Virus record (IMG/VR): IMGVR_UViG_3300011008_000071
Coordinates: 54,714 to 118,713 of that record
Direction: 5' to 3' (one strand)
DNA: 64,000 bases
From: a virus
Lineage: Duplodnaviria > Caudoviricetes
The translations under genes and the position numbers were made by a program. Under the pieces are notes generated by a model that searched no databases, was not told the DNA's origin, and was given only the letters and a program-made list of their open reading frames with translations. Positions 37,455-64,000 of the stretch are shown piece by piece. Each line of letters starts with the position of its first letter. Positions within the stretch are counted from its first letter, which is position 1.

Positions 37455-37471
37455 TAATCCACCAAAAATAA

Positions 37472-37624
37472 AGTATATCATATAAAGCCGGGCGCCAGGG
37501 ATGGACGGGGCAGGATGTGGAAAGAGGGGCGCTATTCGGTGGTGACTCGTATGACGGTGCTCGATCTGGTGCTTTCTCGTGCCTCCTGAATAGTACTGTG
37601 TCTTATTCCTACTGGATTATTGGC
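37472..37624 (+). repeat. DGR template/variable-repeat-like cassette, copy 2 (promoter-like motif + leader + repeat, 3'-truncated)
   Basis: 51-nt leader identical to copy 3; repeat reads GALFGGDSYDGARSGAFSCLLNSTVSYSYWIIG. Confidence 0.85.
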
Positions 37625-37834
37625 ATAAGGTACGGCGGATTTAATCCAATCAAATGCAACGAATTTGAAACTACCATTTCCTGCATTGGCATCTTCGATA
37701 GAATCGAATACGGTAAGATCCACTCCACTATTACAGAAGGATTTGATCTTTCCTATGACAATTTCATTTTTGGCACACTCGATGATTAACAGTGTCCCGT
37801 CTGTCTTGAATTGTTCCAACTTCTTTTGTCTCAC
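37532..37834 (-). CDS. hypothetical protein whose C-terminus is the antisense of cassette copy 2
   Basis: Last gene of a minus-strand run; the final ~30 codons lie inside the repeat. Confidence 0.5.
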   Translation of the reverse strand: MRQKKLEQFKTDGTLLIIECAKNEIVIGKIKSFCNSGVDLTVFDSIEDANAGNGSFKFVAFDWIKSAVPYANNPVGIRHSTIQEARESTRSSTVIRVTTE

Positions 37835-37885
37835 ATTAACTCATCTCTTTTCTGTCTATATACCGTAATAACGGTTAAGACAGAG

Positions 37886-38446
37886 TTAGTTGCTAAGATT
37901 CTTATTCCACTCAGGATTTTCCGAGTCAGGATAGAACCATTTCGGTTTTCTTGTAGAGATGTAATAATCAGGGATATCAGGATATAGATTCTGGAACTGG
38001 CCTGATGTGGGATCGCAGTAGATGGTAGTATGCTTCCAGTGTATTGCCAACCATGTATGTTCGATGTACCAATCCTCTTCTTTAATCTTCTTGCTGTGCT
38101 TCTGTTCTCCATGGATGAAGTCAATCGTTATGTCCAGTTCCTTAAGAACGTCACAGTTGGAAAGGTAATTGATGTTAGGCATATTCACTGTATGGTAGGT
38201 AACGCTGCCATCTTCTTTGAACAGGGAATCAATCAGTGCGATTCCTACTAAGTAACGGAGATAGTCACAGAAGTAGATGTCAAACATCAAACATGCCCGA
38301 TTACATTCCCCTTCAAAATTTAATGGGACCTTTTGTCCACGTTGGGCATAATGCTTAGTAATTTGGTCACGGACCTTAATCACTGTCTGTGTGATAATGG
38401 ATACCATATCATTCTTATCAATCTTTAAAATGTCTTTAATTTTCAT
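37886..38446 (-). CDS. hypothetical protein, possibly transglutaminase/papain-like fold
   Basis: G.C...HTW...DPTSGQF, a Cys-His-Asp-like pattern; AGGAGG RBS. Confidence 0.5.
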   Translation of the reverse strand: MKIKDILKIDKNDMVSIITQTVIKVRDQITKHYAQRGQKVPLNFEGECNRACLMFDIYFCDYLRYLVGIALIDSLFKEDGSVTYHTVNMPNINYLSNCDVLKELDITIDFIHGEQKHSKKIKEEDWYIEHTWLAIHWKHTTIYCDPTSGQFQNLYPDIPDYYISTRKPKWFYPDSENPEWNKNLSN

Positions 38447-38535
38447 ATTTCCTCCTTTGGAAACAAAAGACCCATATTGCCATAGCCCGGCAATGCCGGG
38501 CTATGGACAACACGGATCCGAATTCGATAAAAGGG

Positions 38536-38715
38536 TCACTCAGTAAAATACTGAAGTTTTTCATCGTCTGTATAAACGTCCTCTGTTATGGGTTCTTCCC
38601 CATTCTTCTTTTTCAGCAAGTCGTCGACTTTGCTCTGAGAATTGGGACGGTTGATCAGTCCGTCCCGGAACATAAGATCATTGTCTTCGTTTGCCGAAAT
38701 GACTTTGTCATTCAT
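38536..38715 (-). CDS. small hypothetical protein
   Basis: AAGGAG RBS before MNDKVIS. Confidence 0.5.
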   Translation of the reverse strand: MNDKVISANEDNDLMFRDGLINRPNSQSKVDDLLKKKNGEEPITEDVYTDDEKLQYFTE

Positions 38716-38872
38716 TTTGAAACAACTCCTTTTCTTTACTGTAGTCCTTGGATTTGTCGATTTTAACAAGATATGAATATCTGCCCGGTTTGATTTCGCC
38801 ACGAATCATCTTCGATAGAAGAATATCCAGAGGTTCGTCTCCAAACTGTTTCAATCGCTTTACTGCCTGCAT
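38708..38872 (-). CDS. small hypothetical protein (54 aa, below the ORF-track cut-off)
   Basis: AAGGAGG RBS, MQAVKRLKQFGDEP...; overlaps the start of the next gene; upstream TATATTAT. Confidence 0.55.
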   Translation of the reverse strand: MQAVKRLKQFGDEPLDILLSKMIRGEIKPGRYSYLVKIDKSKDYSKEKELFQNE

Positions 38873-38987
38873 TTAAAGTCCTCCTTTATACTTCCTATAT
38901 CTATAATATATATCCATAAGATAAATATATGCTTAGAAGAACCCGAATTTAATTTGACTATACTTTTATATTATGAGGTGAATTGTT

Positions 38988-40037
38988 ATGGAATTTTTAG
39001 ATCTTCCGATATACGACAATATACTGGATGAATTCCTTGATAGGAAATCGTTCCTGGAATCATGCTATGAACTCAGAGCACTTGAGGAGTTATGTAACCC
39101 CGTTGATGAACTCCAACGATATTTCGATGAAACATACATGAGTGAAGCACTGAATGATATCAATCAGAGCGCTGCCAAGACAGTAGGAAATGCATTGAAG
39201 GCAACGAGAGATACAACGACCGGAATGGTTAAAGCCCATTCTGCTCTTACAACATCTTTGGGTAATGCGATGGGGACGACATACAATCTTCTGTATAACC
39301 TCGCAATGGGAATTATAAAGATAATTACATTTATCTTTAACTCTTTCACAATCCTTCCGAGAATGTTACTTAAAGTGACAAATGCAGTAGGAAATATACC
39401 AGGAGATGTTAGATCCAAAGTAAATGGTGATATTCAGCTCTTCATAACAGCTGAAGATATTTCTGTAATGTATGAGCATTCAATCATCAAGAAGCTTAAA
39501 TTATTCATAGCAAATGCTGCTGCTATGAGTAAGGGAGATATGTGGGGAAGCAAACATCACATGACATCCAAAGATAATGATGGAGAAAAGATCAAAGCAA
39601 CCAATAATGATATTGGTCTCGCCAAGCAGCTGCACAAATCATATCTTGATCTTAGTCAGATATCATTCTCCAAAACATTGATTAAAATCAATGACGATTC
39701 GGTGAGAAAATTATATTTTTCCAAAGATGATAGTGGCTCCGGGTCATATTTCAAAAGAATGGACCAGCTTCTGAAGGATGTTCGAGGAATGGAATCCGAT
39801 CTCAGAGATATTAAGAAGTCATTGGAGGAAAAATATAATAAGACTGTTGACAATGGTACATTCATTAAGATGGGTAATTCAATAGAAGGATCTATGAATC
39901 AAAGTTGGATTACCAATTCTATCAGTGATGTATCTAAGACGATGACAATTATTGGGAATTTATTGAAGAATATCCATGAAGACATCAATACCATCAACAG
40001 TGCCGTCAATAAGATTCTCAAAGCAGATAAAAAGTAA
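38988..40037 (+). CDS. hypothetical protein, possibly an internal head protein
   Basis: Acidic N-terminal propeptide-like region (ALEE, YMSEA) followed by a helical body; late-type upstream motif. Confidence 0.45.
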   Translation: MEFLDLPIYDNILDEFLDRKSFLESCYELRALEELCNPVDELQRYFDETYMSEALNDINQSAAKTVGNALKATRDTTTGMVKAHSALTTSLGNAMGTTYNLLYNLAMGIIKIITFIFNSFTILPRMLLKVTNAVGNIPGDVRSKVNGDIQLFITAEDISVMYEHSIIKKLKLFIANAAAMSKGDMWGSKHHMTSKDNDGEKIKATNNDIGLAKQLHKSYLDLSQISFSKTLIKINDDSVRKLYFSKDDSGSGSYFKRMDQLLKDVRGMESDLRDIKKSLEEKYNKTVDNGTFIKMGNSIEGSMNQSWITNSISDVSKTMTIIGNLLKNIHEDINTINSAVNKILKADKK

Positions 40038-40078
40038 AATGTGTGTCACCCTGGGATTTCCCAGGGTGACACATTGTC

Positions 40079-40477
40079 TTATGCACTTAAGAAATCCCTT
40101 AAAGCCATTACAATCAGTTTATCAATACCGTCATTAACCTTGATGGCAATATGGTTGTTTAAATTGATCGGCTTGTCTTCCGGGAGTTGTTTCTGATACT
40201 TCTTAATTGATGATGAGAACTTCAATTGTTCCGTTTTGTGATCACTGTAGAATATTCCGATATTATCTCCCTCAACGGATGAAATTTTCATCGTAGGTTC
40301 TTCGAATGGATATGAGAAACCGAACTTGATACTCCCATACTCAGATTCTACTTCAGTAAGTGCCCCATACCAGGATGGCGTAGAAGTTTTACACTCGGCC
40401 ATCTTCGGATGGTTAATGGTATTCCTTTTGATCACTTCTAGGATGTCTGAATACTTGTAATCACTTAATGATTCCAT
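40079..40477 (-). CDS. hypothetical protein
   Basis: GAGGAGG RBS; last gene of a long minus-strand cluster. Confidence 0.65.
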   Translation of the reverse strand: MESLSDYKYSDILEVIKRNTINHPKMAECKTSTPSWYGALTEVESEYGSIKFGFSYPFEEPTMKISSVEGDNIGIFYSDHKTEQLKFSSSIKKYQKQLPEDKPINLNNHIAIKVNDGIDKLIVMALRDFLSA

Positions 40478-40480
40478 AAG

Positions 40481-40879
40481 TTATTCCTCCTCGCTGTATG
40501 GGCCATAATTATCATTGCCCGTAGAAATATAACTAGTATCAAGAAATATGAACCTAAATAATTCATCCTCGTTATCAATGATTGGTATCAATTTCTCAAG
40601 ATGTTCATCTGCGTGGTCAACATAGCATTCATTCCATGGCTTATATTTATCACACATCGGTCCCATACACACTGTGACACCGCAAGCAGTACATGTGTTA
40701 CGAATTGATTTCACATTTGGTACCTTGACATGATACTTCTTTAGGAAGTTTATTAGTTTCTTTTTATATTTCTGAATTCGTAGATCATGTGGATATGAAT
40801 TCATGGCTATAGATATATGGACACTCTTCATCATCCCAATTCTCATCGGTTTGGTAACGCCAGTTACATTCAATCTCAA
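40481..40879 (-). CDS. hypothetical protein with Cys cluster
   Basis: CTAC...C...C; start uncertain. Confidence 0.5.
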   Translation of the reverse strand: MRLNVTGVTKPMRIGMMKSVHISIAMNSYPHDLRIQKYKKKLINFLKKYHVKVPNVKSIRNTCTACGVTVCMGPMCDKYKPWNECYVDHADEHLEKLIPIIDNEDELFRFIFLDTSYISTGNDNYGPYSEEE

Positions 40880-41072
40880 GCAATAAACACCAAATGATGT
40901 TTATCTTCTCAGCTGCAGAATTGACGATGTCTCCTTCGGTATATGGTAACTTTGTATGAAGGATCACTTCCTTCGGCCCGTAATAATAGCGGGCAGCATG
41001 TTCAGGAGATATGATAATCTGATTCATGGTGGAACTGTTGGTCTCCCACATTGATTGACGTACATATATCAT
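40785..41072 (-). CDS. hypothetical protein
   Basis: GGAGG RBS; abuts the upstream gene. Confidence 0.5.
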   Translation of the reverse strand: MIYVRQSMWETNSSTMNQIIISPEHAARYYYGPKEVILHTKLPYTEGDIVNSAAEKINIIWCLLLEIECNWRYQTDENWDDEECPYIYSHEFIST

Positions 41073-42209
41073 TTATGAATCCTCCTTCGGATGATCTATC
41101 TCTCCGTAATATCTCTGGGACTTTGTGATCAACCATTTGTTGTATTCAGCCACGCCGTCCTTTACGGGATGTGATATGTTGTGGGCCTTGATGGTGTCAT
41201 CAATATTGTTTTGGATATATGATAACATAGTCACCATATCGAATACACCGAACGTTGTGATAGTTGTAGTTTCTGTGTGGACTAGTGTTTCTGTGTGGAC
41301 TAGTGTTCCGTCTGATCCTTTGTCAAAAGTGTCTTTATGCTTTTCGATGCTCTTTATCATGGCCTTGCTGAGAACTTCAACCTTGTCCTTATCATAGAAG
41401 CTGTCAAACTGATTCACCTTCTCCAGATATCGTTTCATATCGTCTACATCGAATATGATACGTTTCACCGGATTCAATGGATCGCCTCTGTCATCCAGAT
41501 AGTATTGCTGTCGAGCGGCTACGGCTCTGCACAGTTTACCGTCTGTAGTAACATATTGCAATACTATTACATCATCCGCAATATGTTCATCTACAAACGG
41601 TGTGATGTAGTTGTGTAACCATTTGCAAACAGCATTCGTGTAAAGAACCTTACCTGTTTTATCTTCGACCAAAACAGTAGCATATGTTCCATTAACACCA
41701 TATACAAACCAATCATCATTCAGTTCGAATGGGTTGTTGCTACCACCGTCTGTACTGATGATGTGGAAGAAACCTTTGATATCCCGATGACGTCTGTACT
41801 GAGTTGTTGAATATGACTGCCTCGGCGGCTCAATAGACCATAATTTCTTATAATCGATTAACGCCCGTAAAATTCTATCATCTTCACCTTCGATTGTGAA
41901 TGTATTACCCAGTGAAAACTCATCCATAGACCGACTGCCATTATGACTATCCCGAATATGGGGCGGATTACCAGGAACGAATTCGAATATTCGATCAAAT
42001 AATACATTATTCTCCGATCTAAAATCGATACAGTATCCCCAATATGGATTATCTGTATTTCTGGTAAACTTTACAGTCATTCCATTCCGGCAGAAGATCC
42101 TCTCTGGATTTTGCCTATAACCAAGCTGAAACTGTGTCATGCCAAAATCAGGATATGGTATATAAAAGCCGAATAAATCTAACAATTCGGCTCCCATGTA
42201 AACACTCAT
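41073..42209 (-). CDS. hypothetical protein
   Basis: AAGGAG RBS before MSVYMG; contains an 18-bp tandem duplication (TLVHTE x2). Confidence 0.7.
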   Translation of the reverse strand: MSVYMGAELLDLFGFYIPYPDFGMTQFQLGYRQNPERIFCRNGMTVKFTRNTDNPYWGYCIDFRSENNVLFDRIFEFVPGNPPHIRDSHNGSRSMDEFSLGNTFTIEGEDDRILRALIDYKKLWSIEPPRQSYSTTQYRRHRDIKGFFHIISTDGGSNNPFELNDDWFVYGVNGTYATVLVEDKTGKVLYTNAVCKWLHNYITPFVDEHIADDVIVLQYVTTDGKLCRAVAARQQYYLDDRGDPLNPVKRIIFDVDDMKRYLEKVNQFDSFYDKDKVEVLSKAMIKSIEKHKDTFDKGSDGTLVHTETLVHTETTTITTFGVFDMVTMLSYIQNNIDDTIKAHNISHPVKDGVAEYNKWLITKSQRYYGEIDHPKEDS

Positions 42210-42270
42210 TATGACTCCTTTCTTAAATGACAAATCCACCCGGGATTTACCCCGGGTGGATTGATTATAC

Positions 42271-42654
42271 TTACGGATGATGATGCATATAGTATATCAA
42301 CATATGTTCCATTTCAGAAGTATATAACATACTATCAATTGATGCACCAACGGACAGGCTCATATCATTGATGAATTTATAGTATGCCATATATTCACCC
42401 TCTTCAGGAATGACGGATGTGTTATACGATACTATCACGTTGTCGGTATCGCCCGACAACTCAAGAACGAAGATAGGTATTCTCGCCGTAATGTTTTTGG
42501 GGTAGAATGATATCTTATAGCCCGAATCGGAGTTATCGATAAACATCCGAACACTAAGTGATTCATCGACGAAGATATATGTCCCAGAATTCCGATTTTC
42601 AAAGTCGGAACTGATGCAATCAAACAGGTCTTGGTATGTGTACTTTAACATCAT
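42271..42654 (-). CDS. hypothetical protein
   Basis: Start overlaps the rtcB stop. Confidence 0.6.
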   Translation of the reverse strand: MMLKYTYQDLFDCISSDFENRNSGTYIFVDESLSVRMFIDNSDSGYKISFYPKNITARIPIFVLELSGDTDNVIVSYNTSVIPEEGEYMAYYKFINDMSLSVGASIDSMLYTSEMEHMLIYYMHHHP

Positions 42655-43856
42655 TCATCACCTGCTTTGAAGTTGTAGATGGGTTTGATCACTTTCAGAA
42701 TATCAACTGTGTCACCAATGTTGTTAACGATGGCTTCCATTGGCTTGTAAGCCATGGGTGCCTCATCGATCGTTGCCGTTGATACTGATGTAGTATAGAC
42801 GTCCTTCATGGAAGATTTGAATTCTTCCATAGTGAGAGATGATCTCGCCTCGGATCTACTCATTAATCGTCCGGTCCCATGAGGTGCAGAATAGTTCCAA
42901 TCCGGGTTACCCTTGCCGACACATATGATTGAACCATCGCGCATGTTCATCGGGATAATCAGCCGTTCACCCTTCTGAGCAGATACAGCACCCTTACGAA
43001 GAATCATGTGTTCAGTATCAAGATAGTTATGCATCGTAGTAAATTGATCAACCAGGTGCCATCCCATACCTTTAATTATGTCATCGGCCATGGCCAGACG
43101 ATTGAAATACGCATACTCCTGCATGATCTTCATATCATGAACATATGCATCGAAAAGGTCGCCCTCACAGTATGCAAGATGCTTCGGAATATTTGTCCGT
43201 TTGGTGTTCTTCAACTTCTTGATTTCCGCTTCAATCTGCTTCTGTTTACCCTCCGCCTTCATCTTCGCTACCAACTCTTTGATTTCCTTCTCGCCGCATT
43301 CATTGAGTCTTCTGTAAGCTTCATTCTGGTAGTAGTTACATACTTCCAAGCCAAGATGTCTGGAGCCGGAGTGAATCACCAGATAAATGTTTCCTTCATC
43401 ATCTTTATTCACTTCGATGAAGTGGTTTCCGCCACCGAGTGATCCAAGACTGTGTTCAGCTCTGATCGGGTTGATATGTTTATAACACATCAGATCCTCA
43501 ACATGAACTCGGTCATTATATCGGTGACTTTTCTCGCGGATATTTGCACCGGAAGGGATGTTCATCTTGATGAACTTGTCAAGCTTCTCCGGTTCGATAT
43601 AGGTTTCCTTAATTTGGGTGACAAGCATTGAACATCCAATATCTACTCCGACCAAATTGGGCACTATCTTGTCTTTGATAGTAATTGTAGTTCCTATGGT
43701 ACATCCTGCTCCTGCATGAACATCCGGCATGATACGTACCTGGGTTCCTTCACACATCGGCTGAGAACATACCTCGATGATCTGACTGATTGAAGGCTGA
43801 TCAATCAGATCTGTGAATACTTTTGCTGTTGTATATTTGCCTTGCAGCTCTAACAT
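42651..43856 (-). CDS. rtcB: RNA-splicing/repair ligase RtcB
   Basis: MPDVHAG, VGVDIGC, GSLGGGNHFIE, HSGSR, HNY, RKGA, SAPHG.GR and DEAPMAYK. Confidence 0.95.
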   Translation of the reverse strand: MLELQGKYTTAKVFTDLIDQPSISQIIEVCSQPMCEGTQVRIMPDVHAGAGCTIGTTITIKDKIVPNLVGVDIGCSMLVTQIKETYIEPEKLDKFIKMNIPSGANIREKSHRYNDRVHVEDLMCYKHINPIRAEHSLGSLGGGNHFIEVNKDDEGNIYLVIHSGSRHLGLEVCNYYQNEAYRRLNECGEKEIKELVAKMKAEGKQKQIEAEIKKLKNTKRTNIPKHLAYCEGDLFDAYVHDMKIMQEYAYFNRLAMADDIIKGMGWHLVDQFTTMHNYLDTEHMILRKGAVSAQKGERLIIPMNMRDGSIICVGKGNPDWNYSAPHGTGRLMSRSEARSSLTMEEFKSSMKDVYTTSVSTATIDEAPMAYKPMEAIVNNIGDTVDILKVIKPIYNFKAGDE

Positions 43857-44641
43857 ATTTCCTCCTTGAATGCATCTATCAAAGCGTTCTTGAGTTGAAC
43901 CGCTTTGATGGTATTCTGATAATCGCCAAGTGTTATTCGTTCACCACACTCCGACCATACAAGGGCGGTGATTGTTTCGAAAAGTTGTTCGATCTTTTCT
44001 TCAGGGATGATGTAGTGGTAATTATGAACTTCAGGATCTTTCACAATGATCTTCTTGAAGTTAGGAGATACCGATGACTGCTCTGGTGTCTTATTGATGA
44101 TATTCTCAGCATCAAGAAGTACACGATGATCTTCTTCAGATTCTTTCCTGGATTCATCTAAAGCAGCCTCTCTTTGCAACCATTTCAACTCAGGATGGTT
44201 ATCGCTGAGATTCTTCAGAAAGTGGTCGTCATGATTCTCGGCATATGCCTCCTCATCGATCTCGATATGACATTCCTTGGGTTCCGTAGCGAGAGGGAAG
44301 TATTCATTGCGTTTAATCTGGTAAATAATGAATAATACGCCTGCTGTATAAAATCCTACCTCTCCAGGATCTATGGCATCTGCTGTGTCATATTTATATC
44401 TATATTGACATTTATCACCAGATCGACAGATAACCACAGTATGCGTAGGACCGATAACAATGATATCCTTGCGAATGTTGGCGCAGATTATATCATTACT
44501 TTTGTATGAAAATGAACAAGAGCAAGGATTTGATTCGGATACACCATTGGTGAGACGTACCTCCATACTATTACCAACTTCACCACCGAGCATTCTCTTT
44601 ACAAGTTCATATATGTCCTTCCATCTTAACAAATCATTCAT
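43850..44641 (-). CDS. hypothetical protein
   Basis: 263-aa ORF in the operon. Confidence 0.65.
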   Translation of the reverse strand: MNDLLRWKDIYELVKRMLGGEVGNSMEVRLTNGVSESNPCSCSFSYKSNDIICANIRKDIIVIGPTHTVVICRSGDKCQYRYKYDTADAIDPGEVGFYTAGVLFIIYQIKRNEYFPLATEPKECHIEIDEEAYAENHDDHFLKNLSDNHPELKWLQREAALDESRKESEEDHRVLLDAENIINKTPEQSSVSPNFKKIIVKDPEVHNYHYIIPEEKIEQLFETITALVWSECGERITLGDYQNTIKAVQLKNALIDAFKEEIC

Positions 44642-44734
44642 TATTACTTTCCTTTCTATTCTTCAGTTTCATCCTCTTTAATATAACGCTGGATGAATGC
44701 TAACATCAGCAGCGATACCATAGGCTCTGCATAA

Positions 44735-44980
44735 TCAGAATCGATTCCGAGGCCGATGGGGGGTGTCAGCATCAACTTCACCCCATTCAGGCTCTTTGCC
44801 CTTGGTCTTGATATACTTAATCGTACTGCCTTTAAGCGTGATCCGTTTCAGCACGGTGCCTGTATCCTGTATAAGAACCTCGAACTTGATAATGAAATTA
44901 TCTTTGGTATCTTTCTTCCGGAATGTAATTAATGGACTACTATAGTCGAGTTCACCCCAGGAGATACATATCAATCCCAT
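44735..44980 (-). CDS. small hypothetical protein
   Basis: 81-aa ORF in the operon. Confidence 0.5.
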   Translation of the reverse strand: MGLICISWGELDYSSPLITFRKKDTKDNFIIKFEVLIQDTGTVLKRITLKGSTIKYIKTKGKEPEWGEVDADTPHRPRNRF

Positions 44981-45057
44981 TAACCTTAAACTTTCCTGGA
45001 CGTGCGTATGTCAAACAGAGGGTATTTACAAAATCCCTATATGTCAATTTCTTCATT

Positions 45058-45762
45058 TTATTTCCTTTCTATGTTGGGGATTTGCCAGTCGATTGTTGAA
45101 TTGCTCACTTCATACAAGTAGTTATTACACTTTACGAAGTGATCACATCCAAAGAACTTTCCTCCAGCAAGAGGAGATGGATGTGCTGCCTGTAGTACCA
45201 GATGGGAACCCTCAGGTATCAATTCCGCTTTGGATCTGGCATCCACTCCCCATAACATAAATACCAGATGTTTTGACCAATCATTCGCCAACAGACGAAT
45301 GATGAAGTCGGTGAAATGTTGCCAACCAAGATTCTTATGCGACTTGGATTGGCCAGCTCTTACGGTCATCACTGTGTTTAATAGAAGAACTCCCTGTTTT
45401 GCCCAAGGAACCAGGTACCCGTTGTTTGGTATCTGGCATCCGAGTTCATTCTTCAATTCAACAAAGATGTTCATCAGTGATGGTGGGATTGGTAACGACT
45501 CAGGTTTGACGGAGAATGCCAAGCCATGTGCCTGTCCTGGATTGATATATGGGTCTTGGCCAAGTATCACAACCTTGGTATCCGCATACGAGGTGTATTT
45601 GAAGGCATTGAATATATCCTCCTTGGGTGGATAGCATTCATACTCTTCATACTCCCGATCCACGTTATCAATCAGCTGTACAAGTTCTTTATCCGTCTTG
45701 AATACTTCCGGGATCACATTATCCCAACTATTGTTGAATGTCGGAATAATCATGTCATTCAC
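45058..45762 (-). CDS. ung: uracil-DNA glycosylase (family 1)
   Basis: VVILGQDPY, QAHGLAFSV, PPSL.NI, WAKQGVLLLN and HPSPL. Confidence 0.95.
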   Translation of the reverse strand: MNDMIIPTFNNSWDNVIPEVFKTDKELVQLIDNVDREYEEYECYPPKEDIFNAFKYTSYADTKVVILGQDPYINPGQAHGLAFSVKPESLPIPPSLMNIFVELKNELGCQIPNNGYLVPWAKQGVLLLNTVMTVRAGQSKSHKNLGWQHFTDFIIRLLANDWSKHLVFMLWGVDARSKAELIPEGSHLVLQAAHPSPLAGGKFFGCDHFVKCNNYLYEVSNSTIDWQIPNIERK

Positions 45763-46309: not shown

Positions 46310-46310
46310 T

Positions 46311-46577: not shown

Positions 46578-46579
46578 AA

Positions 46580-54400: not shown

Positions 54401-54411
54401 GAAGAAGTACT

Positions 54412-54555: not shown

Positions 54556-54602
54556 ACAAAAGAAAACGGGGCTTTGTGGCCCCGTTTTCTTTTTTTTTGT
54601 CT

Positions 54603-55013: not shown

Positions 55014-55141
55014 TATAGATTCCTCCTTTGAATTTATTGAATAACACCCGGGCGTGATATTCTACAATTATAATATATACACATAAATGCCCGATGAACG
55101 ACAATTTAAATGATCAAATCTACAAAAGGAGGTATTAGGTC

Positions 55142-57367
55142 ATGGCTAATGAAGTTATATCCGTTCTAACCAGAGATCTGATCACATTAGATGATGAAAC
55201 TAATCCTGAAGGTTCGGGTATTAATACCATTTACCCTTCAACCACACTTGATCAGGTGTTTGATAATAGATCGTCTACTAATAAAACATTACGGACTATC
55301 ATTGAAGAACTCAAGGTTGATATCCTAACAGGCGGCCGAGGAAATATCAATTTTCCAGTGACATCCGTAAATGGTAAAACGGGCAATATTGAAATCAGTC
55401 CCGCAGATTTAGGCTTACAGGATCTGATCGGCAACAAGCCTGATATGGACAAACCTTTGTCTGATCCACAACGAGAAGCCGTAAGTCAAATGATCTCGTC
55501 ATACAGATATGAAGTAGATCTGTCTGATCTGTATAATCATATCAATGACATGGATAATCCACATGGAGTTACAATTGCACAGCTTGATTCCAGTGGTGCT
55601 GTAACATCGATGATCAAAGCGTTGATCCATAGTCATAGTATAGATACAGACATGAATACCCATCTCGATATCAGGAATCAGATATCGGCATTGAGTAGTC
55701 GTCTCAGTAATCTATCAACTGCTGTTGATCAGACCGTTACAACGACTTTTGATACCATTGCTAGACATGACACAGATACTGCGGCTCATATCAATCTCTT
55801 CTCCAAGAAAGAAGATGCTGATAACAAAGCATATGAAATAGGAGAAGGAAATCATAAATCATATCCATCAACCAGAGCAGTTGTCGAATATGTAACAGCC
55901 AGACTTGCTGAGTACAAGAGATCCAATCCTGATGTCCAGCAGTGGATAGATGATATCATATTCATCGATAACAGATCTGAATTGCCTATGGCCAATTACG
56001 GAGTATATCGTAAAGCATACTTCATTCGATACGGCAATGGGTCACATCCGGAGTTGGCGATATGCAGGATGAACCCAGATGGTAGAACATATGGATGGGA
56101 CATTTCAACATCCAGTACCTTCTCTAAGTTCGATCCTGTATACTTCACCGAGAACGCAGATGGTTTGAGCATCAATCTGAATACAATCACAGACCGTATC
56201 ATGCAGGAGGATTCGATACTGAATTCCATGAAATCTCAGCTATCCAATCTGATGCCAAACATAATGGGTGAGTACTACACCAAGACAGCAATCGATACAT
56301 TTCACTTCATCAGAAGTATATCAATCCTTCCTGGGACACAGGACGGAACAATTCGTTACTTTATCAATGAAGATGAAAGAACGATGAGTGACGACATTCG
56401 AGTTACGGGGTTGCAGCGTCTTGCATTCCTTGAATGGATAACCGAGGGAGAACTTGCAGATCAAGCTGTTCAATCCAGACACATCGTAGATAGAGCCATC
56501 GAACACAGACATATGGGTGACAAGGCCGTATCTTACAAAAATATGCAAGCATCTCATATGACGATGTTTGGTAATCTGGAAGACGAAACCAATCACTCTG
56601 TACAGGAGATCACAATACCTGAACTCGCCGCTACACTGAACCCATATCTGCAACTACAAATTGATGATACCCGATTCTCTGTATTGACGGATCCGGAAAT
56701 ATATTCGATCATGAATAAGGCATTCCGTAGTAGTCAGGGATGGGTTGATCCTGAGCTGTGCGTAAATGCATATGTATCCCGTGAAGGAGAACTCATAATT
56801 GAATATGATTATGATGATCCGATCATATGGATGGAACCTGATGGAACTGTATACATGATGTGGGATAACACGGCTACAGATAACGCCCTGGTACGTTTCA
56901 AGTTCAGGATTGATGGTGAGAACCTCGTGATTGATTACACTGAGCTTGATCCTACGAAGCCTGCTGAATTCAAGATTATGGACGATGAACTGATCGTCGA
57001 ATATTCCGAAATGTTCAACGCTCCTCAGATTTCTCATGATGCAGAAGGAAATATTATACTCACTTCGTATGACTCGGAAGTTGACGTTGAATTGAGTAAA
57101 TACTTCTTCATGGAGACATCTAATGGAGATCTGATCATGTTCTATGATATGCCAGACTTCTCTGATAAGGTTGCCAAGTTTGACTTCCTTGGAGAGGATC
57201 TGATTGTTACATATGATGAAGCATATGGACAGCCTGAGATCTGGCTGGATAGAACAACCGGAGATCTGATTCTGAATTCGTATGATTCGGAGAACGATGT
57301 AGAACTCTCCAGATACATCTTCAAGATTAATCTTGAAGGAGAACTCGAAGCAACTTATCTTGATTAA
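55142..57367 (+). CDS. tail fibre-like protein with C-terminal GELII repeats
   Basis: Fibre-type motifs IYPSTT..QV, VTSVNGKTG, DKPLS.PQ, H..D..NPHGVT, KE...NK and YPS..AV..YV. Confidence 0.7.
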   Translation: MANEVISVLTRDLITLDDETNPEGSGINTIYPSTTLDQVFDNRSSTNKTLRTIIEELKVDILTGGRGNINFPVTSVNGKTGNIEISPADLGLQDLIGNKPDMDKPLSDPQREAVSQMISSYRYEVDLSDLYNHINDMDNPHGVTIAQLDSSGAVTSMIKALIHSHSIDTDMNTHLDIRNQISALSSRLSNLSTAVDQTVTTTFDTIARHDTDTAAHINLFSKKEDADNKAYEIGEGNHKSYPSTRAVVEYVTARLAEYKRSNPDVQQWIDDIIFIDNRSELPMANYGVYRKAYFIRYGNGSHPELAICRMNPDGRTYGWDISTSSTFSKFDPVYFTENADGLSINLNTITDRIMQEDSILNSMKSQLSNLMPNIMGEYYTKTAIDTFHFIRSISILPGTQDGTIRYFINEDERTMSDDIRVTGLQRLAFLEWITEGELADQAVQSRHIVDRAIEHRHMGDKAVSYKNMQASHMTMFGNLEDETNHSVQEITIPELAATLNPYLQLQIDDTRFSVLTDPEIYSIMNKAFRSSQGWVDPELCVNAYVSREGELIIEYDYDDPIIWMEPDGTVYMMWDNTATDNALVRFKFRIDGENLVIDYTELDPTKPAEFKIMDDELIVEYSEMFNAPQISHDAEGNIILTSYDSEVDVELSKYFFMETSNGDLIMFYDMPDFSDKVAKFDFLGEDLIVTYDEAYGQPEIWLDRTTGDLILNSYDSENDVELSRYIFKINLEGELEATYLD

Positions 57368-57430
57368 CATAAATCACATGGGGCTTTATAAAGCCCCATG
57401 TGATTTGACTTGCTTTTAAGAGGAGGATTG

Positions 57431-59662
57431 ATGACAATGTCTTTTTATCAACTTGACAAATCAATCATATTATACAGACAACAATTCGAACGGTATGTAT
57501 TGCAGATCTTTGGAGATCATCGAATATCGAGATGCTCCATGGATCTGGAGGGACAAATGTTCCGGATAAAGTACGTACTTCGAAAGAAAGGATACACGGA
57601 AGAGGTCAAATCCCTCATAGACGAATACTGCGAAATGTCTACGGAGATGCGGAAATACTTCAGCCGGTTCGTTGTTGAACTGATTCAGAATCGGATTATC
57701 AAAGCCGATGAGATGACAGATGTCATGACATATGACGTGAAGTTCGATGCAAACTACGTATCATTTACAATGAAGGTCATATCTGAATCGGAACGGTGGC
57801 TACAATGGTTTGATGAAGCTTTTGATTCATCTGTACCGTTCAACATCTTTCCGCATGAATATTTCCGATTCAGTACCGATTCATACAACGATGGGATTGC
57901 CAAAGCATATCCAGAACTGTTCGAACAGAAACATGCTGATATTGGTGTTGGGGATGACGGGGATATCTTCTGTCATTCCTTTACATTCCAAACAACCGAA
58001 GCATGCTCCCTTAACTGCTTTGCCAAGGGTACACAGATACTGATGGCGGATGGAACATATAAGAACATCGAAGACATCAAACTCGGTGAGTATGTAATGG
58101 GCTTCGATGAAGAGGATTACGTGGATGAACCGGCATCTGATTTCTATCCAACTCGTGTGACAGGAATGTATTTGAACTACTCCCCATGCTACACCATTTC
58201 CTCCAAGGAACTTCAACATGATATTCTTGTAACACCAGAGCATCTGATATACACCGACATTGATGAATGGACCAAGGTAGAAGACTTGGATAAGACCAAG
58301 GGTATCATGATATACAATGAGAAAGGTTTCTTCGAGCAAATATACAACTATTCCGTGAAACGAAAGAATACTAATGATCAAGACGTATACGACCTGGAAA
58401 CAGAATCCCATACATTCATTGCAGCTGGACTCTGTGTTCATAACTGCACCTACTGCTATCAGTTCAATAAATCCAATATGAGGATGCAGTTTGACACAGC
58501 GAAAGAATTCATAGATCATTTATTGAATGATGATTATGGATACATCAACCGATATAACTCCCCGGCAATCATTCTGGAGTTCATAGGTGGAGAACCTCTC
58601 TTAGAGATATCTCTAACAAGAAGAATCTATGAATACTTCCTCGATAGATGTTATGAACTAAATCATCCCTGGTTTACCCTACACAGGTTATCCATCTGCA
58701 GTAATGGCATGCAATACTTCAATGAAGAAGTGCAGGAGTTCTTCAAGCTATACTCTTCACAGATATCATTCAATATATCCATTGATGGTAACAAGGAACT
58801 CCATGATACATGCCGGAAACAGCCAAATGGAGAAGGATCATATGACATCGATATTGCAGCACTAAACCATTTCAACAAGCATTTCTCCCCAGAGAGAAAT
58901 AGTAAGATGACCCTATCTCCACAGAATATTGGTTATTTGTATGATTCCGTCGTGGACTTCATCAAACATGATATGAAGGTAATCAATATCAACTGTGTGT
59001 TTGAGGAAGGATGGAAACCAGAACACGCCAAGACTGAATACTATCAACTCAAGAAGTTGGCTGATTATCTAATTGACAATGATCTTGAAAACATCTACGT
59101 GGCCATCTTTGATGAGAGACAGGAAGAACAAATGGATCCTCTCAGTGACGGCAGTTTCTGTGGCGGAGATGGAAGCATGTTGGCTGTCCGCCCAAATGGA
59201 GAATTCTATCCTTGTCTACGATATATGCCATCGTCTGTAGGAGATGATGGCCCGGATATGTGTATAGGAACGGTCAAGGATGGAATGATTGGAAGAGAGC
59301 AAGGATCAGAAGTTCTTAAAATGTTAGATAGTATTACGCGTAGAGGGCAGAATACTGATATCTGTTGGAGTTGTCCTATTGGTACTGCATGTGCTTCATG
59401 TTTGGCTTTGGGAGCTACGGTTTTTGGTACTCCAACAAAACGTACTACGTTCATATGCCTGATGGTGATTGCCGAAACGCTTGCCAATGTTTACTACTGG
59501 AATAGATTGATTATAAAACATCCTGATTTGAATATTAATGTCAGGGAGAATAATGTTCCAGATGAATGGGCAAGAATCATATTAACGGAAGAAGAACTCG
59601 CAGAGCTTCGTATCATCGAACTGGTAGCGAAGATGTCTAAAATGACGTATGAACACTTTTAA
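57431..59662 (+). CDS. radical SAM/SPASM maturase of the CXXX-repeat-target type, with N-terminal extension and intein
   Basis: TFQTTEACSLN[intein]CTYCY, EFIGGEPLLE, HPWF, SNG, SIDG.KE.HD.CR, GSYD, and SPASM CG...G..YPC.R...C.SC.....CA.C...C. Confidence 0.9.
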   Translation: MTMSFYQLDKSIILYRQQFERYVLQIFGDHRISRCSMDLEGQMFRIKYVLRKKGYTEEVKSLIDEYCEMSTEMRKYFSRFVVELIQNRIIKADEMTDVMTYDVKFDANYVSFTMKVISESERWLQWFDEAFDSSVPFNIFPHEYFRFSTDSYNDGIAKAYPELFEQKHADIGVGDDGDIFCHSFTFQTTEACSLNCFAKGTQILMADGTYKNIEDIKLGEYVMGFDEEDYVDEPASDFYPTRVTGMYLNYSPCYTISSKELQHDILVTPEHLIYTDIDEWTKVEDLDKTKGIMIYNEKGFFEQIYNYSVKRKNTNDQDVYDLETESHTFIAAGLCVHNCTYCYQFNKSNMRMQFDTAKEFIDHLLNDDYGYINRYNSPAIILEFIGGEPLLEISLTRRIYEYFLDRCYELNHPWFTLHRLSICSNGMQYFNEEVQEFFKLYSSQISFNISIDGNKELHDTCRKQPNGEGSYDIDIAALNHFNKHFSPERNSKMTLSPQNIGYLYDSVVDFIKHDMKVININCVFEEGWKPEHAKTEYYQLKKLADYLIDNDLENIYVAIFDERQEEQMDPLSDGSFCGGDGSMLAVRPNGEFYPCLRYMPSSVGDDGPDMCIGTVKDGMIGREQGSEVLKMLDSITRRGQNTDICWSCPIGTACASCLALGATVFGTPTKRTTFICLMVIAETLANVYYWNRLIIKHPDLNINVRENNVPDEWARIILTEEELAELRIIELVAKMSKMTYEHF
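58016..58444 (+). mobile_element. mini-intein (143 aa, no endonuclease)
   Basis: CFAKGTQILMADG..KNIEDI..G..V, VTPEH, VYDLET..HTFIA.G..VHN, followed by +1 Cys. Confidence 0.92.
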
Positions 59663-59746
59663 GAACAATCCATCCACCCCGGTCACCCGGGGTGGATGGA
59701 TTTCTCGGAGGTAGTCCAAATGACTAAGACAGAAATGTGATCATTA

Positions 59747-60475
59747 TTATTGACCGAGACCGTTACCTTCACCTTCGGGTTCTTCCTTGGTAAATGTTAC
59801 GGTTTCCTCAACGTCTGCAGTACCCATTGTTCCAGCTACAGTTGCCTTGTCAGCCGTATAGCCTTCAACTTCAGGAGTTGTTACGGAGTAAGCTGCGCCT
59901 TCTTCATACTCTTCGAGGTAATCATCGGGAGCAGTGAAGTCTGTATCATCTTCAGGACCTACATACTCTATTGAAAGTGTATGCTTAGCCTTGGGCTTTT
60001 CAGTCGGTTCTTCCACTGTGGGCTCTTTATCCTCTTCTTCCTTAGCGTCCTTGGTGTATGTAATAGTTACTTCCTTACCTGCAGCAGGCATCTTACCAGT
60101 GATAAGATTCTGATCAGGTGTGTATCCTACTACGGTGTAGGGCACGAATGTGTATGTAGCGCCTACAGCGTACTTCTTGGTGAAGGGTTTAAACTTCTCG
60201 AAGTCGTTATCATCCTTGGGGCCTTCGAACTTCACAGTGAGATTTGCTGTAGCAGGAAGAACTTCGATGTCATCACCAGGAGCATCTGTTGGCTCACCCT
60301 TCTCAGGAAGTCCTTCTGTAAGAACTTCTATTACCGTAGGCATTACAGCAAAGAACTCATCTTTGGTAAGACTAATGCCGAGACCGGAACGAGAAAGAAT
60401 GTGGCGAAGAGCTTCAACGATTTCTACAGCAGCAGCTTCAAGCTTACCTTCAGCTATGAGAGTTTTTACGCTCAT
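59747..60475 (-). CDS. protein with two MucBP-like domains
   Basis: Two repeats of L...(F/Y).GP.DD.DF.........GA.Y........GYT.D.....G.M......T.T(Y/F)TK; no signal peptide or LPXTG. Confidence 0.7.
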   Translation of the reverse strand: MSVKTLIAEGKLEAAAVEIVEALRHILSRSGLGISLTKDEFFAVMPTVIEVLTEGLPEKGEPTDAPGDDIEVLPATANLTVKFEGPKDDNDFEKFKPFTKKYAVGATYTFVPYTVVGYTPDQNLITGKMPAAGKEVTITYTKDAKEEEDKEPTVEEPTEKPKAKHTLSIEYVGPEDDTDFTAPDDYLEEYEEGAAYSVTTPEVEGYTADKATVAGTMGTADVEETVTFTKEEPEGEGNGLGQ

Positions 60476-60589
60476 GAAATATCATTCCTTTCAAAAAATA
60501 AATTATGTTTAATACCTCATTATCCGCTTGAGGGTTACATAATGGTGAGGTTCAACGACTAATTAACTATCTTAGCCGTATAGGAGGTA

Positions 60590-63226
60590 ATGATAATGAA
60601 TAAAGATCTTTATTCGAATACTGAATTTACGGAACTCAAAAAACGGATTAATGCAGAAATAATTCGTCGTGGTGGATATAAGTGGTATGACCCATTATCC
60701 ACACCCAAGATTGGAGAAGACAGATCGTCTCCAATGTCAATCCCTGATATAGGCAAACGAGTTCCCGTAGATGATAAAACATATACAATCAATAACCCGT
60801 CCGAGGGATCAATAGAACGGACTCGGAATATTCAATACCCGGCAAATGGCGAGAACCCTGGTGGATCCAACCCAGAGTTCATTAGCAATATTGGCTCTTC
60901 AGCTGCAGCATTAACTGTAGATGAGATCAAGAATATGATTGTCGGTCTAAGCAAGATACAGGATATCAATCTCTTTTATGGAAGGGATGAAAAGGCTGGA
61001 ATAGCTTTTAGAGATCCTCAGGCAATTGAAGATCTATTAGATACAATAGAGAATGATGTACTTAATAAACGTCATGAAGCAACATTTGAATTCCATATGA
61101 TTGATGGTAATCTTATCATTACTTCCTACAAGGACATTGATTTCAATGCTTCAATTAATGACAATGGAGAGTTGATAATCACATATACAGACGAGGAAGT
61201 TGAGAAGATAGAATCATTTGTGTTTACACAAAATGACGATGGGGAATTAATCATTACGGATAAGAATGGGCTTATGTGTTTCAGATACGATCCCAACGGA
61301 GATATCAAGGGATATCCAAATCCTGAATATCCCGTGGAGAATCCTCCTTTATATGAATTCCCCGTACAAGATGGCTATTACGTAATCCCATCTGGTGAAC
61401 GAGATGGAGAAGAAGTTGCAACATGGAATGGTCTTGGTCCGGACAATTTCTTTGATGACTATGGAGCAACACCAGGAGATGGGAATTACCATCCATACAA
61501 CCATGCTACCACACCTCAGACCAGGAGAGATTACTATATATATGACACATCTCGGAAAGGTAAGAAGATAATCGTAATCCAAGGTGGGATCAAAGCATCA
61601 TCGTATGGGCAGAACCCTCGTAATCCTAACCCAGGTAATGAATACAAACCAATGCCTATGTTCAGTGGTGTTCTTGGAACATGTAACAATGCATGCACAG
61701 GATTATGTCATGAGACATGCGATTCTCAATGTTCCGAATCATGTTCGGCAACATGCTTCTCCAGATGCGGAAATGCATGCACGGCCTCGTGTGGTAATGT
61801 ATGTACCGGATGTAGTACGATGTGTCACGCTTCCTGTCAAACGAAGTGTGAGAATGCCACGGGATATGCATGTGTCAAGTCTGGAGCAAAGACCGTAAAG
61901 ATCTATACCACAGGTGGAGCAGATGGTGTCCCTGCAAAAAATCATCTTGAGTACACAACACATACCTGTCAAGGATGTTCCTATTCATGTCAGTTCTACC
62001 CCAATAAGAAGACAGATTGTTGGGATGCCGGATGTATGGGTAAATGCTTCACATCATGTGATACAGCATGTTCTACATCTTGTCTTGGTGGATGTATTAA
62101 TAATGATGCACGGAACGGAAAGGGACAAGGCTGTTCCGCAGGCTGCACAATCAACTGCTCTGGAGTGTGCCAAGGAACATGTGAAGGACTATGTACGGAA
62201 ACATGTTTCCATCAGTGCAAAGAACTGTGTTCTGATACTTGTGAATGGACATGCGAGACGGCATGTGGTGCAGGATGCGATACAGGATGTACCAACGGTT
62301 GTACCGGTTGTGACGGTACCTGTGAATCATACTGCACAGGAGATTCCGACATGTATGGCTGTACAGGATGCAGCACCAAAGGTGGATGTACATCAGTATG
62401 TCAATTCGACTGTAACAGCAATTGCATCAATAAGGGATGTAAATCAATGTGTGGCATAGACAGTGCTGGAGCATGTTCAAATAACTGCCGTATCTCATGT
62501 TCATCTTCGTCATGTACTTCCCAGTGTTCCAACCAGTGTACAGACGAATGTACTACATGTGTGAACACTTGCGGTTGGGGTTGCGGGGCATGTAGTTCCG
62601 CCTGCAGTAATGGGTGTGAATCGACATGCAATATTACATGCACCGCTACATGCGAGAATTCATGCAATACGAATTGTGTTCAATCATGCTCTGAAGAATG
62701 CGCCGGATGTTCGAATTTATGCTACTCGTGTGTGGGAATGTGCATTGGGGTATGTTCGGTGAAGTGTTCCGGTAACTGTTCATCATGTACAAATCAGTGT
62801 AGTTGGTGGTGCGATACACAGTGTAATCAGGCTTGTTTCTCCAACTGTGATGATCAATGCCTAACATCTTGCAATGGAACGTGTGCAACATTCGCAGATA
62901 TGGATGCAAATCTTCCTGGACCGGAAAGAGGACCTACTTCCCCTGGTTATGCGAACCCGAATATTACAAACCGTATCGAAGAACAAGAATCATTCCGCCT
63001 CATCAGAACCTTATACAGTTCCGAAACATTCAATGTATATCTTACCGAAGATAAGGAGCTATATGTGGAATATGATGAAGAGGAAGACTTTGTCATTGAC
63101 TTAGTAATCGATGATGACGGAAACTTAGTCCTTAATTCGAATAACACACCATTCGACATTACACTCAAGAAATTACATTTCGAAGTGAAAAATGGCGAAC
63201 TAACAATGACAATACAAGAGGGATGA
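60590..63226 (+). CDS. CXXX-repeat Cys-rich protein, probable radical SAM substrate and virion component
   Basis: About 88 Cys (hand count) in CXXX/CXX spacing at 61682-62884; two copies of the GELII module; AGGAGG RBS. Confidence 0.8.
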   Translation: MIMNKDLYSNTEFTELKKRINAEIIRRGGYKWYDPLSTPKIGEDRSSPMSIPDIGKRVPVDDKTYTINNPSEGSIERTRNIQYPANGENPGGSNPEFISNIGSSAAALTVDEIKNMIVGLSKIQDINLFYGRDEKAGIAFRDPQAIEDLLDTIENDVLNKRHEATFEFHMIDGNLIITSYKDIDFNASINDNGELIITYTDEEVEKIESFVFTQNDDGELIITDKNGLMCFRYDPNGDIKGYPNPEYPVENPPLYEFPVQDGYYVIPSGERDGEEVATWNGLGPDNFFDDYGATPGDGNYHPYNHATTPQTRRDYYIYDTSRKGKKIIVIQGGIKASSYGQNPRNPNPGNEYKPMPMFSGVLGTCNNACTGLCHETCDSQCSESCSATCFSRCGNACTASCGNVCTGCSTMCHASCQTKCENATGYACVKSGAKTVKIYTTGGADGVPAKNHLEYTTHTCQGCSYSCQFYPNKKTDCWDAGCMGKCFTSCDTACSTSCLGGCINNDARNGKGQGCSAGCTINCSGVCQGTCEGLCTETCFHQCKELCSDTCEWTCETACGAGCDTGCTNGCTGCDGTCESYCTGDSDMYGCTGCSTKGGCTSVCQFDCNSNCINKGCKSMCGIDSAGACSNNCRISCSSSSCTSQCSNQCTDECTTCVNTCGWGCGACSSACSNGCESTCNITCTATCENSCNTNCVQSCSEECAGCSNLCYSCVGMCIGVCSVKCSGNCSSCTNQCSWWCDTQCNQACFSNCDDQCLTSCNGTCATFADMDANLPGPERGPTSPGYANPNITNRIEEQESFRLIRTLYSSETFNVYLTEDKELYVEYDEEEDFVIDLVIDDDGNLVLNSNNTPFDITLKKLHFEVKNGELTMTIQEG

Positions 63227-63486
63227 ATAGTATGATTTGTAAGATCATATATGGAGCATTCCCAGAAAATTATACCGATATGGACATTAGCAAGAATAAT
63301 GCATTACGGGAACTTCTGGGGATGAATGATGAGCTGGACAACGAGTTCAAACGGCAGGAACTCCATACTATGGAAGCAAAAAATAAAGCTCTTTCATCGA
63401 TAGGAAATTCTGTGGATGTAAACAGCATCTCGTTTGGTTCAAGTGCATTTTCAGACAAAATAATATTTACAGTAGAAACATTATGA
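63223..63486 (+). CDS. small hypothetical protein coupled to the Cys-rich gene
   Basis: ATGA overlap. Confidence 0.55.
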   Translation: MNSMICKIIYGAFPENYTDMDISKNNALRELLGMNDELDNEFKRQELHTMEAKNKALSSIGNSVDVNSISFGSSAFSDKIIFTVETL

Positions 63487-63523
63487 GTATGGAGTCCCGG
63501 AACATTCCGGGACTCCTATCTTC

Positions 63524-63736
63524 TCATTCTGCTACAGGAGTAGCACAGTCGTCGATAAGAACCGGACGGGACAGTCGGTCTGCGATCTTTGTTACAATGA
63601 TACTACCAGCAGCGCTACATGCTCCGCTTACGAGACCTGTCGCTGCTGCTACACCGATTGCCTTTGAAATTGCCTTCTTGGAATACTTGGATCTGTGATG
63701 GCCTAACTTCTTAATGTTAAATACTTTCTTTTTCAT
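63524..63736 (-). CDS. small basic/hydrophobic protein
   Basis: GGAGG RBS; upstream TATATTAT. Confidence 0.55.
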   Translation of the reverse strand: MKKKVFNIKKLGHHRSKYSKKAISKAIGVAAATGLVSGACSAAGSIIVTKIADRLSRPVLIDDCATPVAE

Positions 63737-63845
63737 GATATTTTCCTCCAGTCATGATATAAATTTGGATACATACTCTTTATGTACCTCAAGTTAATAA
63801 TATATGTATAAATGCGGAGAATATACGGTAATGACCCAAATATTT

Positions 63846-64000
63846 AGTATATCATATAAAGCCGGGCGCCAGGGATGGACGGGGCAGGATGTGGAATAGG
63901 GGCGCTATTCGGTGGTAGCTCGAATCACGGTGCTAAGGATGGTGCATTCGGTTGCTCCCTGAATGATACTGTGTCTCGTTCCTACTGGACTTGTGGCGCC
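63846..64000 (+). repeat. DGR template/variable-repeat-like cassette, copy 3 (different variant; runs off the window)
   Basis: Same 51-nt leader as copy 2; repeat reads GALFGGSSNHGAKDGAFGCSLNDTVSRSYWTCGA with 22 substitutions relative to copy 2. Confidence 0.85.

Follow-up and report, generated by a model that had tools for sequence, protein, structure and literature searches.

Diversity-generating retroelements (DGRs) have been described as acting on coding variable repeats (VRs) at the 3' ends of their target genes. A stretch of viral DNA of 64,000 nucleotides, hereafter the window, raises the question of what such repeats are doing at places where they encode nothing. The window comprises bases 54714–118713, i.e. 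the last 64 kb, of the 118,713-nt IMG/VR virus contig IMGVR_UViG_3300011008_000071 (CheckV completeness 44%). An earlier note on it, made from the letters of the window, described three copies of a GC-rich element with one reading frame resembling the VRs of lectin-fold DGR targets, and took them for stand-alone template RNAs. Are these copies templates of a DGR, or sites that receive its products? We found a canonical DGR with a reverse transcriptase (RT), an adenine-rich template repeat (TR) and a tail-protein target ~45 kb upstream in the same contig. We consider it probable that the three elements are gene-less VRs and recipient sites of this DGR, which would have arisen as detached fragments of a target gene, been rewritten as bystanders and spread by recombination. 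Most recipient sites in this phage would then encode nothing.

The three copies and the upstream retroelement

The three copies lie where the earlier note had placed them, copy 1 on the minus strand and copies 2 and 3 on the plus strand. They consist of the following parts (window coordinates; G1 denotes a second phage, with a 168-kb contig).

Copy 1, 16917–16990, minus strand: headless VR segment of 74 nt, 100% identical to 37551–37624
Copy 1, 16893–16919, minus strand: VR-type 3' element, similar to an initiation of mutagenic homing (IMH) site, starting with GGCGCC and then CGCCTC...; exact 27-mer
Copy 1, 16881–16909, minus strand: hairpin TCTCCCT ... AGGGAGA, overlapping the 3' element and then extending past it; read from the sequence and folded
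Copy 1, 16834–16866, minus strand: intrinsic terminator closing the copy, a member of a phage-wide terminator family
Copy 2, 37450–37471, plus strand: upstream stretch, similar to copy 3 and a G1 cassette (repeat family, by alignment)
Copy 2, 37472–37522, plus strand: leader, identical to the leader of copy 3 (by alignment)
Copy 2, 37526–37543, plus strand: head coding for GALFGG, equivalent to the ..FALFGG.. strand that the tail-fibre target family conserves
Copy 2, 37544–37624, plus strand: VR, ending 3 nt into GGCGCC, without the 3' element
Copy 3, 63846–63896, plus strand: leader, with an inverted 3'-element motif at 63861–63870
Copy 3, 63899–63916, plus strand: head, GALFGG
Copy 3, 63917–64000, plus strand: VR, cut off by the end of the contig; the final 77 nt (63924–64000) equal the tail-gene VR

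As described before, the 51-nt leaders of copies 2 and 3 (37472–37522 and 63846–63896) are identical, and the copies differ by a 1-nt indel, which is an additional A of copy 2 at 37524/5, just 3' of the leader. This A is private to the contig and does not occur in copy 3, in G1 or in run X3, an independent gut sample of 2023. The similarity between copies 2 and 3 begins, at a lower level, already at 37450. In the GALFGG frame, the two copies differ at the 22 positions in 12 codons that had been counted, distributed 10/9/3 over codon positions 1/2/3, i.e. 19 at positions 1–2. The first base of copy 1 corresponds to TR position 14/15, and on its 3' side copy 1 goes on into the GC-rich element, the hairpin and the terminator. 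Among the three window copies it alone keeps all of these, and its hairpin was also found in four other cassettes.

The RT of the upstream DGR is encoded by an open reading frame at contig positions 8810–9919 on the minus strand (RVT_1, E 1e-21; phrog_1423, 5e-99). It carries the YMDD motif and a DGR-like motif 4, G..TS[H]..AN, with S-H replacing S-Q; a search of the RT against NCBIfam gave only sub-threshold matches. The A-rich TR lies ~240 nt upstream of the RT start, between the target and the RT. It translates as ..GGNSNNGAKDGAFNCNLNNTVSNSNWNIGA, and the RNA of this region is predicted to be strongly structured (z −4.5). The interval from TR to RT, where the spacer RNA of a DGR is expected, has a weak match to Rfam RT-18 (L006:2309–2389, minus strand; 27.7 bits, E 0.2, below gathering). 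The target is a 534-aa tail protein (contig 10610–12214, minus strand; L005:1474–3072), matching phrog_5302 over its full length and carrying the VR at its 3' end. No match to avd (PF05635) was found in the 118.7-kb contig, which is 44% complete. The avd gene is not universal among DGRs.

The C-terminal domain of the tail protein was modelled with AlphaFold2 at a predicted local distance difference test score of 73.7, with the VR tip at low confidence. When this model was compared with 48,161 chains by VIA-align, the Thermus aquaticus DGR variable protein TaqVP (PDB 5vf4) was the single match (Z 6.7, root-mean-square deviation 3.7 Å over 171 residues). The resemblance is limited by 17% identity, by the uncertain tip and by the absence from the tail protein of 12 residues of its family. 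A Foldseek search of the model against the PDB and a PDB sequence search with the tail protein returned nothing. With Z below 8, we assign a C-type-lectin-like fold to the target domain with moderate confidence.

The relation between VRs and TR is that of a DGR. In six independent alleles, 86 of 89 differences from the TR fall on its adenines, and only 27 of its 91 positions are adenines. The window copies are depleted of adenine at their variable sites, and the true TR still keeps its adenines. The proposal that the copies are adenine-specific DGR products is therefore borne out, and the ancestor reconstructed from the window is close to the true TR. Such a comparison of the variable sites with the adenines of a master template had been proposed in the earlier note. 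The note had also advised a search for a master template beside an RT and avd, and for a lectin-fold tail gene whose 3' end matches a cassette: the A-rich TR does lie by the RT, avd was not found in the contig, and the tail VR equals copy 3 over 77 nt. RT and target are indeed missing from the window, but RT, TR and target are all present upstream in the same contig. The findings that would have spoken against a DGR altogether, namely a lack of an RT or lectin-type target, or variable sites not corresponding to template adenines, were not made.

What distinguishes recipients from the template is the 3' end. Copy 1, the VR of the tail gene, one more cassette at genome position 23190 and four G1 cassettes all have an identical 27-nt 3' element, whose exact sequence is also present in G2, another phage. 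The 3' flank of the TR diverges from this VR-type element after GGCGCC. Copy 2 is without the element, and copy 3 runs off the contig before that point. The cassettes are 45–108 kb away from the RT and do not adjoin it.

Gene-less repeats in two large phages

As had been observed, copies 1–3 are in no plausible gene, and the tail-protein VR is alone in lying at the 3' end of a coding target gene. Copy 1 starts 19 nt past the stop of a UvsW-like helicase gene (17008–18441, minus strand) and in another frame; the helicase gene is complete, with complete DEAD and Helicase_C domains. The upstream stretch of copy 2 begins within the stop region of a 1023-aa virion gene (34383–37454; phrog_20751, virion structural protein), and copy 3 is located between divergent transcription units. 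The open stretches in the VR frame are 36–88 codons long, have no ribosome-binding site and mostly have no start codon, whereas the genes of this phage otherwise carry strong AAGGAGG sites. A search of the cassette frame against 5.8 billion proteins matched only the phage's own tail protein, and a search for proteins of near length gave no match. The part of the tail protein outside the VR has no paralogue in the contig, and therefore the genes upstream of the cassettes are not decayed targets. Copy 2 adjoins the 3' end of a convergent small gene, whose natural stop in relatives is ~8 nt past the junction. In G1 (L015:4966–6882, minus strand) and in the window (37532–37834, minus strand), the frame of a convergent gene extends into the cassette in antisense. 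The cassettes therefore adjoin the 3' ends of neighbouring genes and may have replaced them.

The search of the genome and of relatives for further copies, which the earlier note had recommended, yielded the cassette at genome position 23190 and cassettes in G1 and in another phage, G2. In IMG/VR, cassettes were found in G1 and G2 only. The remaining IMG/VR matches to the 17-nt head pattern were chance matches, and the same database held no exact match to the TR and no relative of the virion gene. The full cassette was unmatched by blastn in GenBank phages, and pattern scans of metagenome contigs gave 0 matches. In the papers searched, no description of gene-less VR copies was found.

G1 contains five cassettes with the same leader, none of them in a gene, at 30.4 kb (truncated), 41.2 kb, 65.9 kb (full), 113.5 kb and 140.8 kb. 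Its own RT is not in the assembled part of G1. Outside the cassettes, the two window stretches of ~9 kb that surround copies 1 and 2 find no similar DNA in G1, and the helicases of the two phages are ~35% identical. The leader core is nevertheless 100% identical over at least 36 nt in G1, and the 3' element is the same.

To see how common gene-less VRs are, we used a profile of the C-terminus on 30 other phages that have the target family (22 of these with a completeness of 90% or more). VR and TR only were present in 27, VR only in 2, and an additional gene-less copy in 1. In the contig studied here 4 of 5 VRs are gene-less, and in G1 all 5 of 5, compared with 29 of 30 relatives without any. 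It follows that gene-less VRs are generally rare, with a strong enrichment in these two large phages. The one relative with such a copy, the 60-kb phage IMGVR_UViG_3300045988_131358 (G024), has the additional A-mutagenised VR at 57869–58012 (L103), with a 66-codon open frame, ~52 kb from its DGR.

The family of the target also suggests where the cassettes came from. The C-terminal region of the tail protein has 406 homologues, and all 13 inspected homologues as well as 20 IMG/VR relatives follow the pattern ..STxYCDxxW.......(F/Y)ALFGGxSxxG...GAF.C.L...VS.S.W..GA.LS.KP. The cassette head is the ALFGG strand of this C-terminus, and the leader of the genome-23190 cassette reads in frame as ..SAGGIRCSDGQWDGALFGG, a remnant of ..SASTHYCDYGW... 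All head-bearing cassettes start at the same point, past a TATAAA box. Because head and leader match the family C-terminus and the start points are identical, each cassette is, as judged by alignment, evidently a detached 3' fragment of a canonical tail-fibre target-gene end that was later copied. The layout of a cassette is accordingly a ..SASTHYCDYGW.. remnant as leader, the ..ALFGG.. head, the VR, the recipient-specific 3' element and the hairpin.

The phage's own tail gene is odd in this respect. Twelve residues that all inspected homologues conserve, ALFGG among them (the ..GTTFALVGGHS.. segment), are missing from it, and its VR, like copy 1, has no head: both begin at TR position 14/15, with the codon AAT read as GAT, and their upstream flanks are unrelated.

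The leader also has a relation to the other end of the cassette. The start of the 3' element recurs in it, inverted, at bases 37487–37496 (GCCGGGCGCC), and as GGCGGGCG in the short-leader type, and the core heptamer of this GC motif has no other occurrence in the 119 kb. In minimum-energy folds, a stem of leader and 3' element closes the entire VR, with weak z-scores of −0.9 and −2.7. One G1 copy has an altered 3' flank that matches its own leader over ~17 nt, forming a 17-nt terminal inverted repeat. The conserved leader, being complementary to the 3' element, may help in target recognition.

Shared alleles and their possible rewriting

Several loci carry the same hypermutated allele. Besides the 74 nt shared by copies 1 and 2, the longest substring that copy 3 has in common with the tail-gene VR measures exactly 77 nt and stops where the contig does, and the G1 cassette at 65.9 kb equals the truncated copy at 30.4 kb over the 3' part of the VR, the 3' element and the hairpin. 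In the identical 74-nt and 77-nt blocks, none of the adenines (11 and 12, respectively) has changed. Since ~55% of TR adenines are changed per allele, mutagenic copying without any change has a probability of ~1e-4. We rejected cassette-to-cassette copying by the DGR RT because the shared blocks retain every adenine; the sequences thus argue for transfer of shared alleles at the DNA level and make copying by the RT very unlikely. The three identical pairs are all inverted, for which the chance probability is ~0.2. The geometry of copies 1 and 2 corresponds to a single inversion with a duplicated overlap of 74 nt, and gene conversion between pre-existing copies would fit equally well. An invertase-driven shufflon was dropped as a candidate, as both partners carry the same VR and there would be no functional switch; recombinase genes were not searched for.

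Comparison with another strain suggests that the locus of copy 2 has been rewritten. In X3, the same virion gene end, leader and head are present at ~97% identity. The first variable codon of the X3 VR is as in copy 2, and the next two codons differ, at TR adenine positions. Such a pattern is suggestive of a tract replaced from the 3' end, i.e. rewriting at the copy 2 locus.

These observations can be combined in a simple model. Cassettes that have TR homology and the 3' element would still be overwritten by adenine-mutagenised cDNA as bystanders, coding for nothing, and this overwriting would produce the A-specific differences between copies and between strains. The cassettes themselves may have spread and become truncated through DNA-level recombination. 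Homologous recombination, gene conversion or duplicative rearrangement would carry VR alleles from one locus to another, and hence copy 1 would be the same as copy 2, and copy 3 the same as the expressed tail VR. If its junction is real, copy 2, which has lost the 3' element, should now be frozen. The model does not require the cassettes to have any function.

The system resembles the DGR of phage BPP-1 (mtd VR, IMH, hairpin, TR, brt) in that the RT adjoins an A-rich TR, a tail-fibre gene with a lectin fold carries the VR at its 3' end, the substitutions are adenine-specific, the 3' element of the recipient is unlike that of the TR and a hairpin follows just downstream. Unlike in BPP-1, avd was not found in the contig, at least four gene-less VRs up to 108 kb away accompany one genic VR, and several VRs are truncated, some with identical alleles. 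Multi-target DGRs, in which one TR and RT serve several VRs, some of them remote, are known from Treponema denticola (TvpA group), Legionella and Trichodesmium. Their additional VRs are in protein-coding genes, in contrast to the gene-less ones here. The cassettes can also be compared with pilE/pilS of Neisseria, which likewise involve partial copies, without promoter or start, of the variable end of a protein that is exposed at the surface or binds receptors, and a silent copy equal to the expressed variable tract (here copy 3 and the tail VR over 77 nt). The variation here is made by a retroelement and not stored in diverged cassettes, and we do not claim membership in that class.

Gene-less recipients, if confirmed as such, would show that homing needs only elements in cis, and automated DGR surveys that require a target open reading frame would miss such sites. 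The identical hypermutated alleles at separate loci, one of them a working tail-fibre gene, point to movement of DGR-made alleles within the genome by recombination, which would add storage or reassortment to DGR biology. VR repeats also break, and may scramble, metagenomic phage assemblies.

Weighing the alternatives

A number of points weigh against gene-less recipients rewritten as bystanders. All sequence data are from metagenome assemblies at a depth of ~6x, and junctions were checked with Logan contigs (k=31) only. The identity of copy 3 and the tail VR is traceable over 77 nt only, as the contig ends there. Continued homing at gene-less copies rests on one strain comparison, and the X3 difference is also explicable by gene conversion from another cassette. 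The common start of copy 1 and the tail VR is unaccounted for by random truncation. The complete conservation of the leader between two phages with ~35% identical helicases exceeds what would be expected of an inert remnant, except after a recent transfer. The right junction of copy 2 is the weakest spot: no listed Logan contig of the best-matching run bridges 37624|37625, the right-flank contig of X1 (record 8) has 46 unmatched nt left of 37623, and X2 and X4 have different sequence left of 37625. In the best-matching run, 97% of the words of window 35000–40000 are present, and the missing 3% could be the private junctions of copy 2. The loss of the 3' element from copy 2 may thus be strain-specific or chimeric.

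The most serious alternative is that the odd features, namely the inverted identical pairs, the break of copy 2 and the join of copy 1 to the helicase, are products of assembly or strain mixture, with only the simple complete orphan cassettes being real. Its appeal is that the contig end cuts the block common to copy 3 and the tail VR after exactly one 77-mer, as is typical of a k=77 graph, that the contigs of G2 and several relatives also break within VRs, and that, at ~6x depth with an unbridged junction, a further X1 Logan contig (record 6) runs unbranched through the copy 2 allele (0 mismatches in 99 nt) behind a short leader, in a third context. The X2 and X4 sequences left of 37625 and the X1 sequence upstream of this additional copy are not in the IMG/VR contig. 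The overlap of 77 nt with which the contig ends has the appearance of a vertex of a k=77 graph, an assembly effect on the stop point and no evidence against the identity. The 74-nt repeat is, however, shorter than k=77, so real k-mers must span both contexts, and the conserved stretches between variable codons, at most 11 nt, are too short for chimeric paths. The same kind of pair exists in G1, consistent with G2 from another sample; unique flanks are present on both sides of the genome-23190 cassette and the G1 cassettes at 41.2, 113.5 and 140.8 kb; and X3 confirms the cassette 3' of the virion gene. We regard an artefactual origin of the odd features as improbable, though worth serious attention. 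Several IMG/VR contigs of the same target family (L023, L025, L026, L011) end in or at a VR.

Alternatively, the cassettes could be an archive in the manner of pilE/pilS, with gene-less stores or donors of receptor-binding alleles; the DGR would diversify those with a 3' element, and homologous recombination would move alleles between cassettes and the expressed tail-fibre VR. In favour of this, copy 3 and the expressed tail VR are identical, with all adenines kept, throughout the 77 nt that can be compared, at least three cassette contexts have alleles in common, conservation of leader and 3' element extends across very different phages, the cassettes are enriched compared with relatives, and copy 2 without its 3' element would be a frozen allele. 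Yet such identity could come from transfer in either direction or from recent duplication or rearrangement, and a cassette that is itself rewritten makes a poor archive. Moreover, the tail gene is without the 12 conserved residues that the cassettes keep, so simple replacement of the tip is impossible. A silent reservoir is therefore unlikely in our estimation, and the archive or gene-conversion idea of the earlier note survives as a minority possibility. Similarly doubtful is a two-tier system of tail-fibre variation, in which the DGR would write into both the cassettes and the expressed gene, recombination would shuttle whole VR alleles, and the complementary leader would mark cassettes for homing. 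If it were true, the phage could store, recover or reshuffle receptor-binding tips.

We attach still less weight to a small mobile or structured element, resembling a miniature inverted-repeat transposable element or a non-coding RNA, that would derive from the 3' end of the target gene and spread between co-infecting phages. The length of ~170–190 nt, the terminal inverted GC motifs of 8–10 nt (the 17-nt terminal inverted repeat in one G1 copy) and the intergenic, multi-copy occurrence in two dissimilar phages would suit such an element. Against it, no target-site duplications were seen on inspecting the aligned flanks of four full copies, no transposase is linked, the fold z-scores are weak (−0.9 and −2.7), and the truncated copies resemble illegitimate joins with 1–2 nt of microhomology. 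We consider this explanation very unlikely.

The earlier reading, that the copies are promoter-driven stand-alone template RNAs that were themselves adenine-mutagenised, or integrated cDNAs, is contradicted and hardly credible: a GC-rich 5' motif able to pair with the 3' end and close the repeat, loosely like closed TR RNA, and a TATAAA-type box upstream of all head-bearing cassettes speak for it, but the true A-rich TR is elsewhere and adjoins the RT, as does the weak RT-18 match, and the 3' element of copy 1, the genome-23190 cassette and the G1 cassettes, where a 3' end is present, is that of recipients and not that of the TR. The only Rfam match at the loci of copy 2 and the genome-23190 cassette was a weak one, BSnc120 (E 0.56), near the genome-23190 terminator. 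Since the TR contains neither leader nor 3' element nor hairpin, the cassettes are not cDNA, and ectopic integration of cDNA is a poor fit. The description of the copies as promoter-bearing was not upheld either: the TATATCAT motif is present, but a sigma-70-type scan calls no promoter there, and TATAAA-type boxes are not enriched upstream of genes. The strong promoter-like motif AGTTAATAATATAT upstream of copy 3 was rejected as a cassette promoter, since it faces the divergent neighbouring gene.

Preferring gene-less recipient sites, we add two observations on the regulatory signals of the phage. The promoter-like ATATATTATTAA has 8 occurrences against 1.4 expected, all of them intergenic and pointing at a nearby gene start, and is probably a phage promoter class. 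Terminators form a family in which the flanks AAAGAAAAGG ... CCTTTTCTTTTGT are conserved and the stems differ but compensate, and which is common to both dissimilar phages. The sites are as follows (window coordinates unless stated).

Promoter-like ATATATTATTAA sites: 16095–16106, 21511–21522, 22297–22308, 23333–23344, 63794–63805 and others
Terminator family: 20166–20216, 24721–24771, 16834–16866, and in G1 at 30.3 kb

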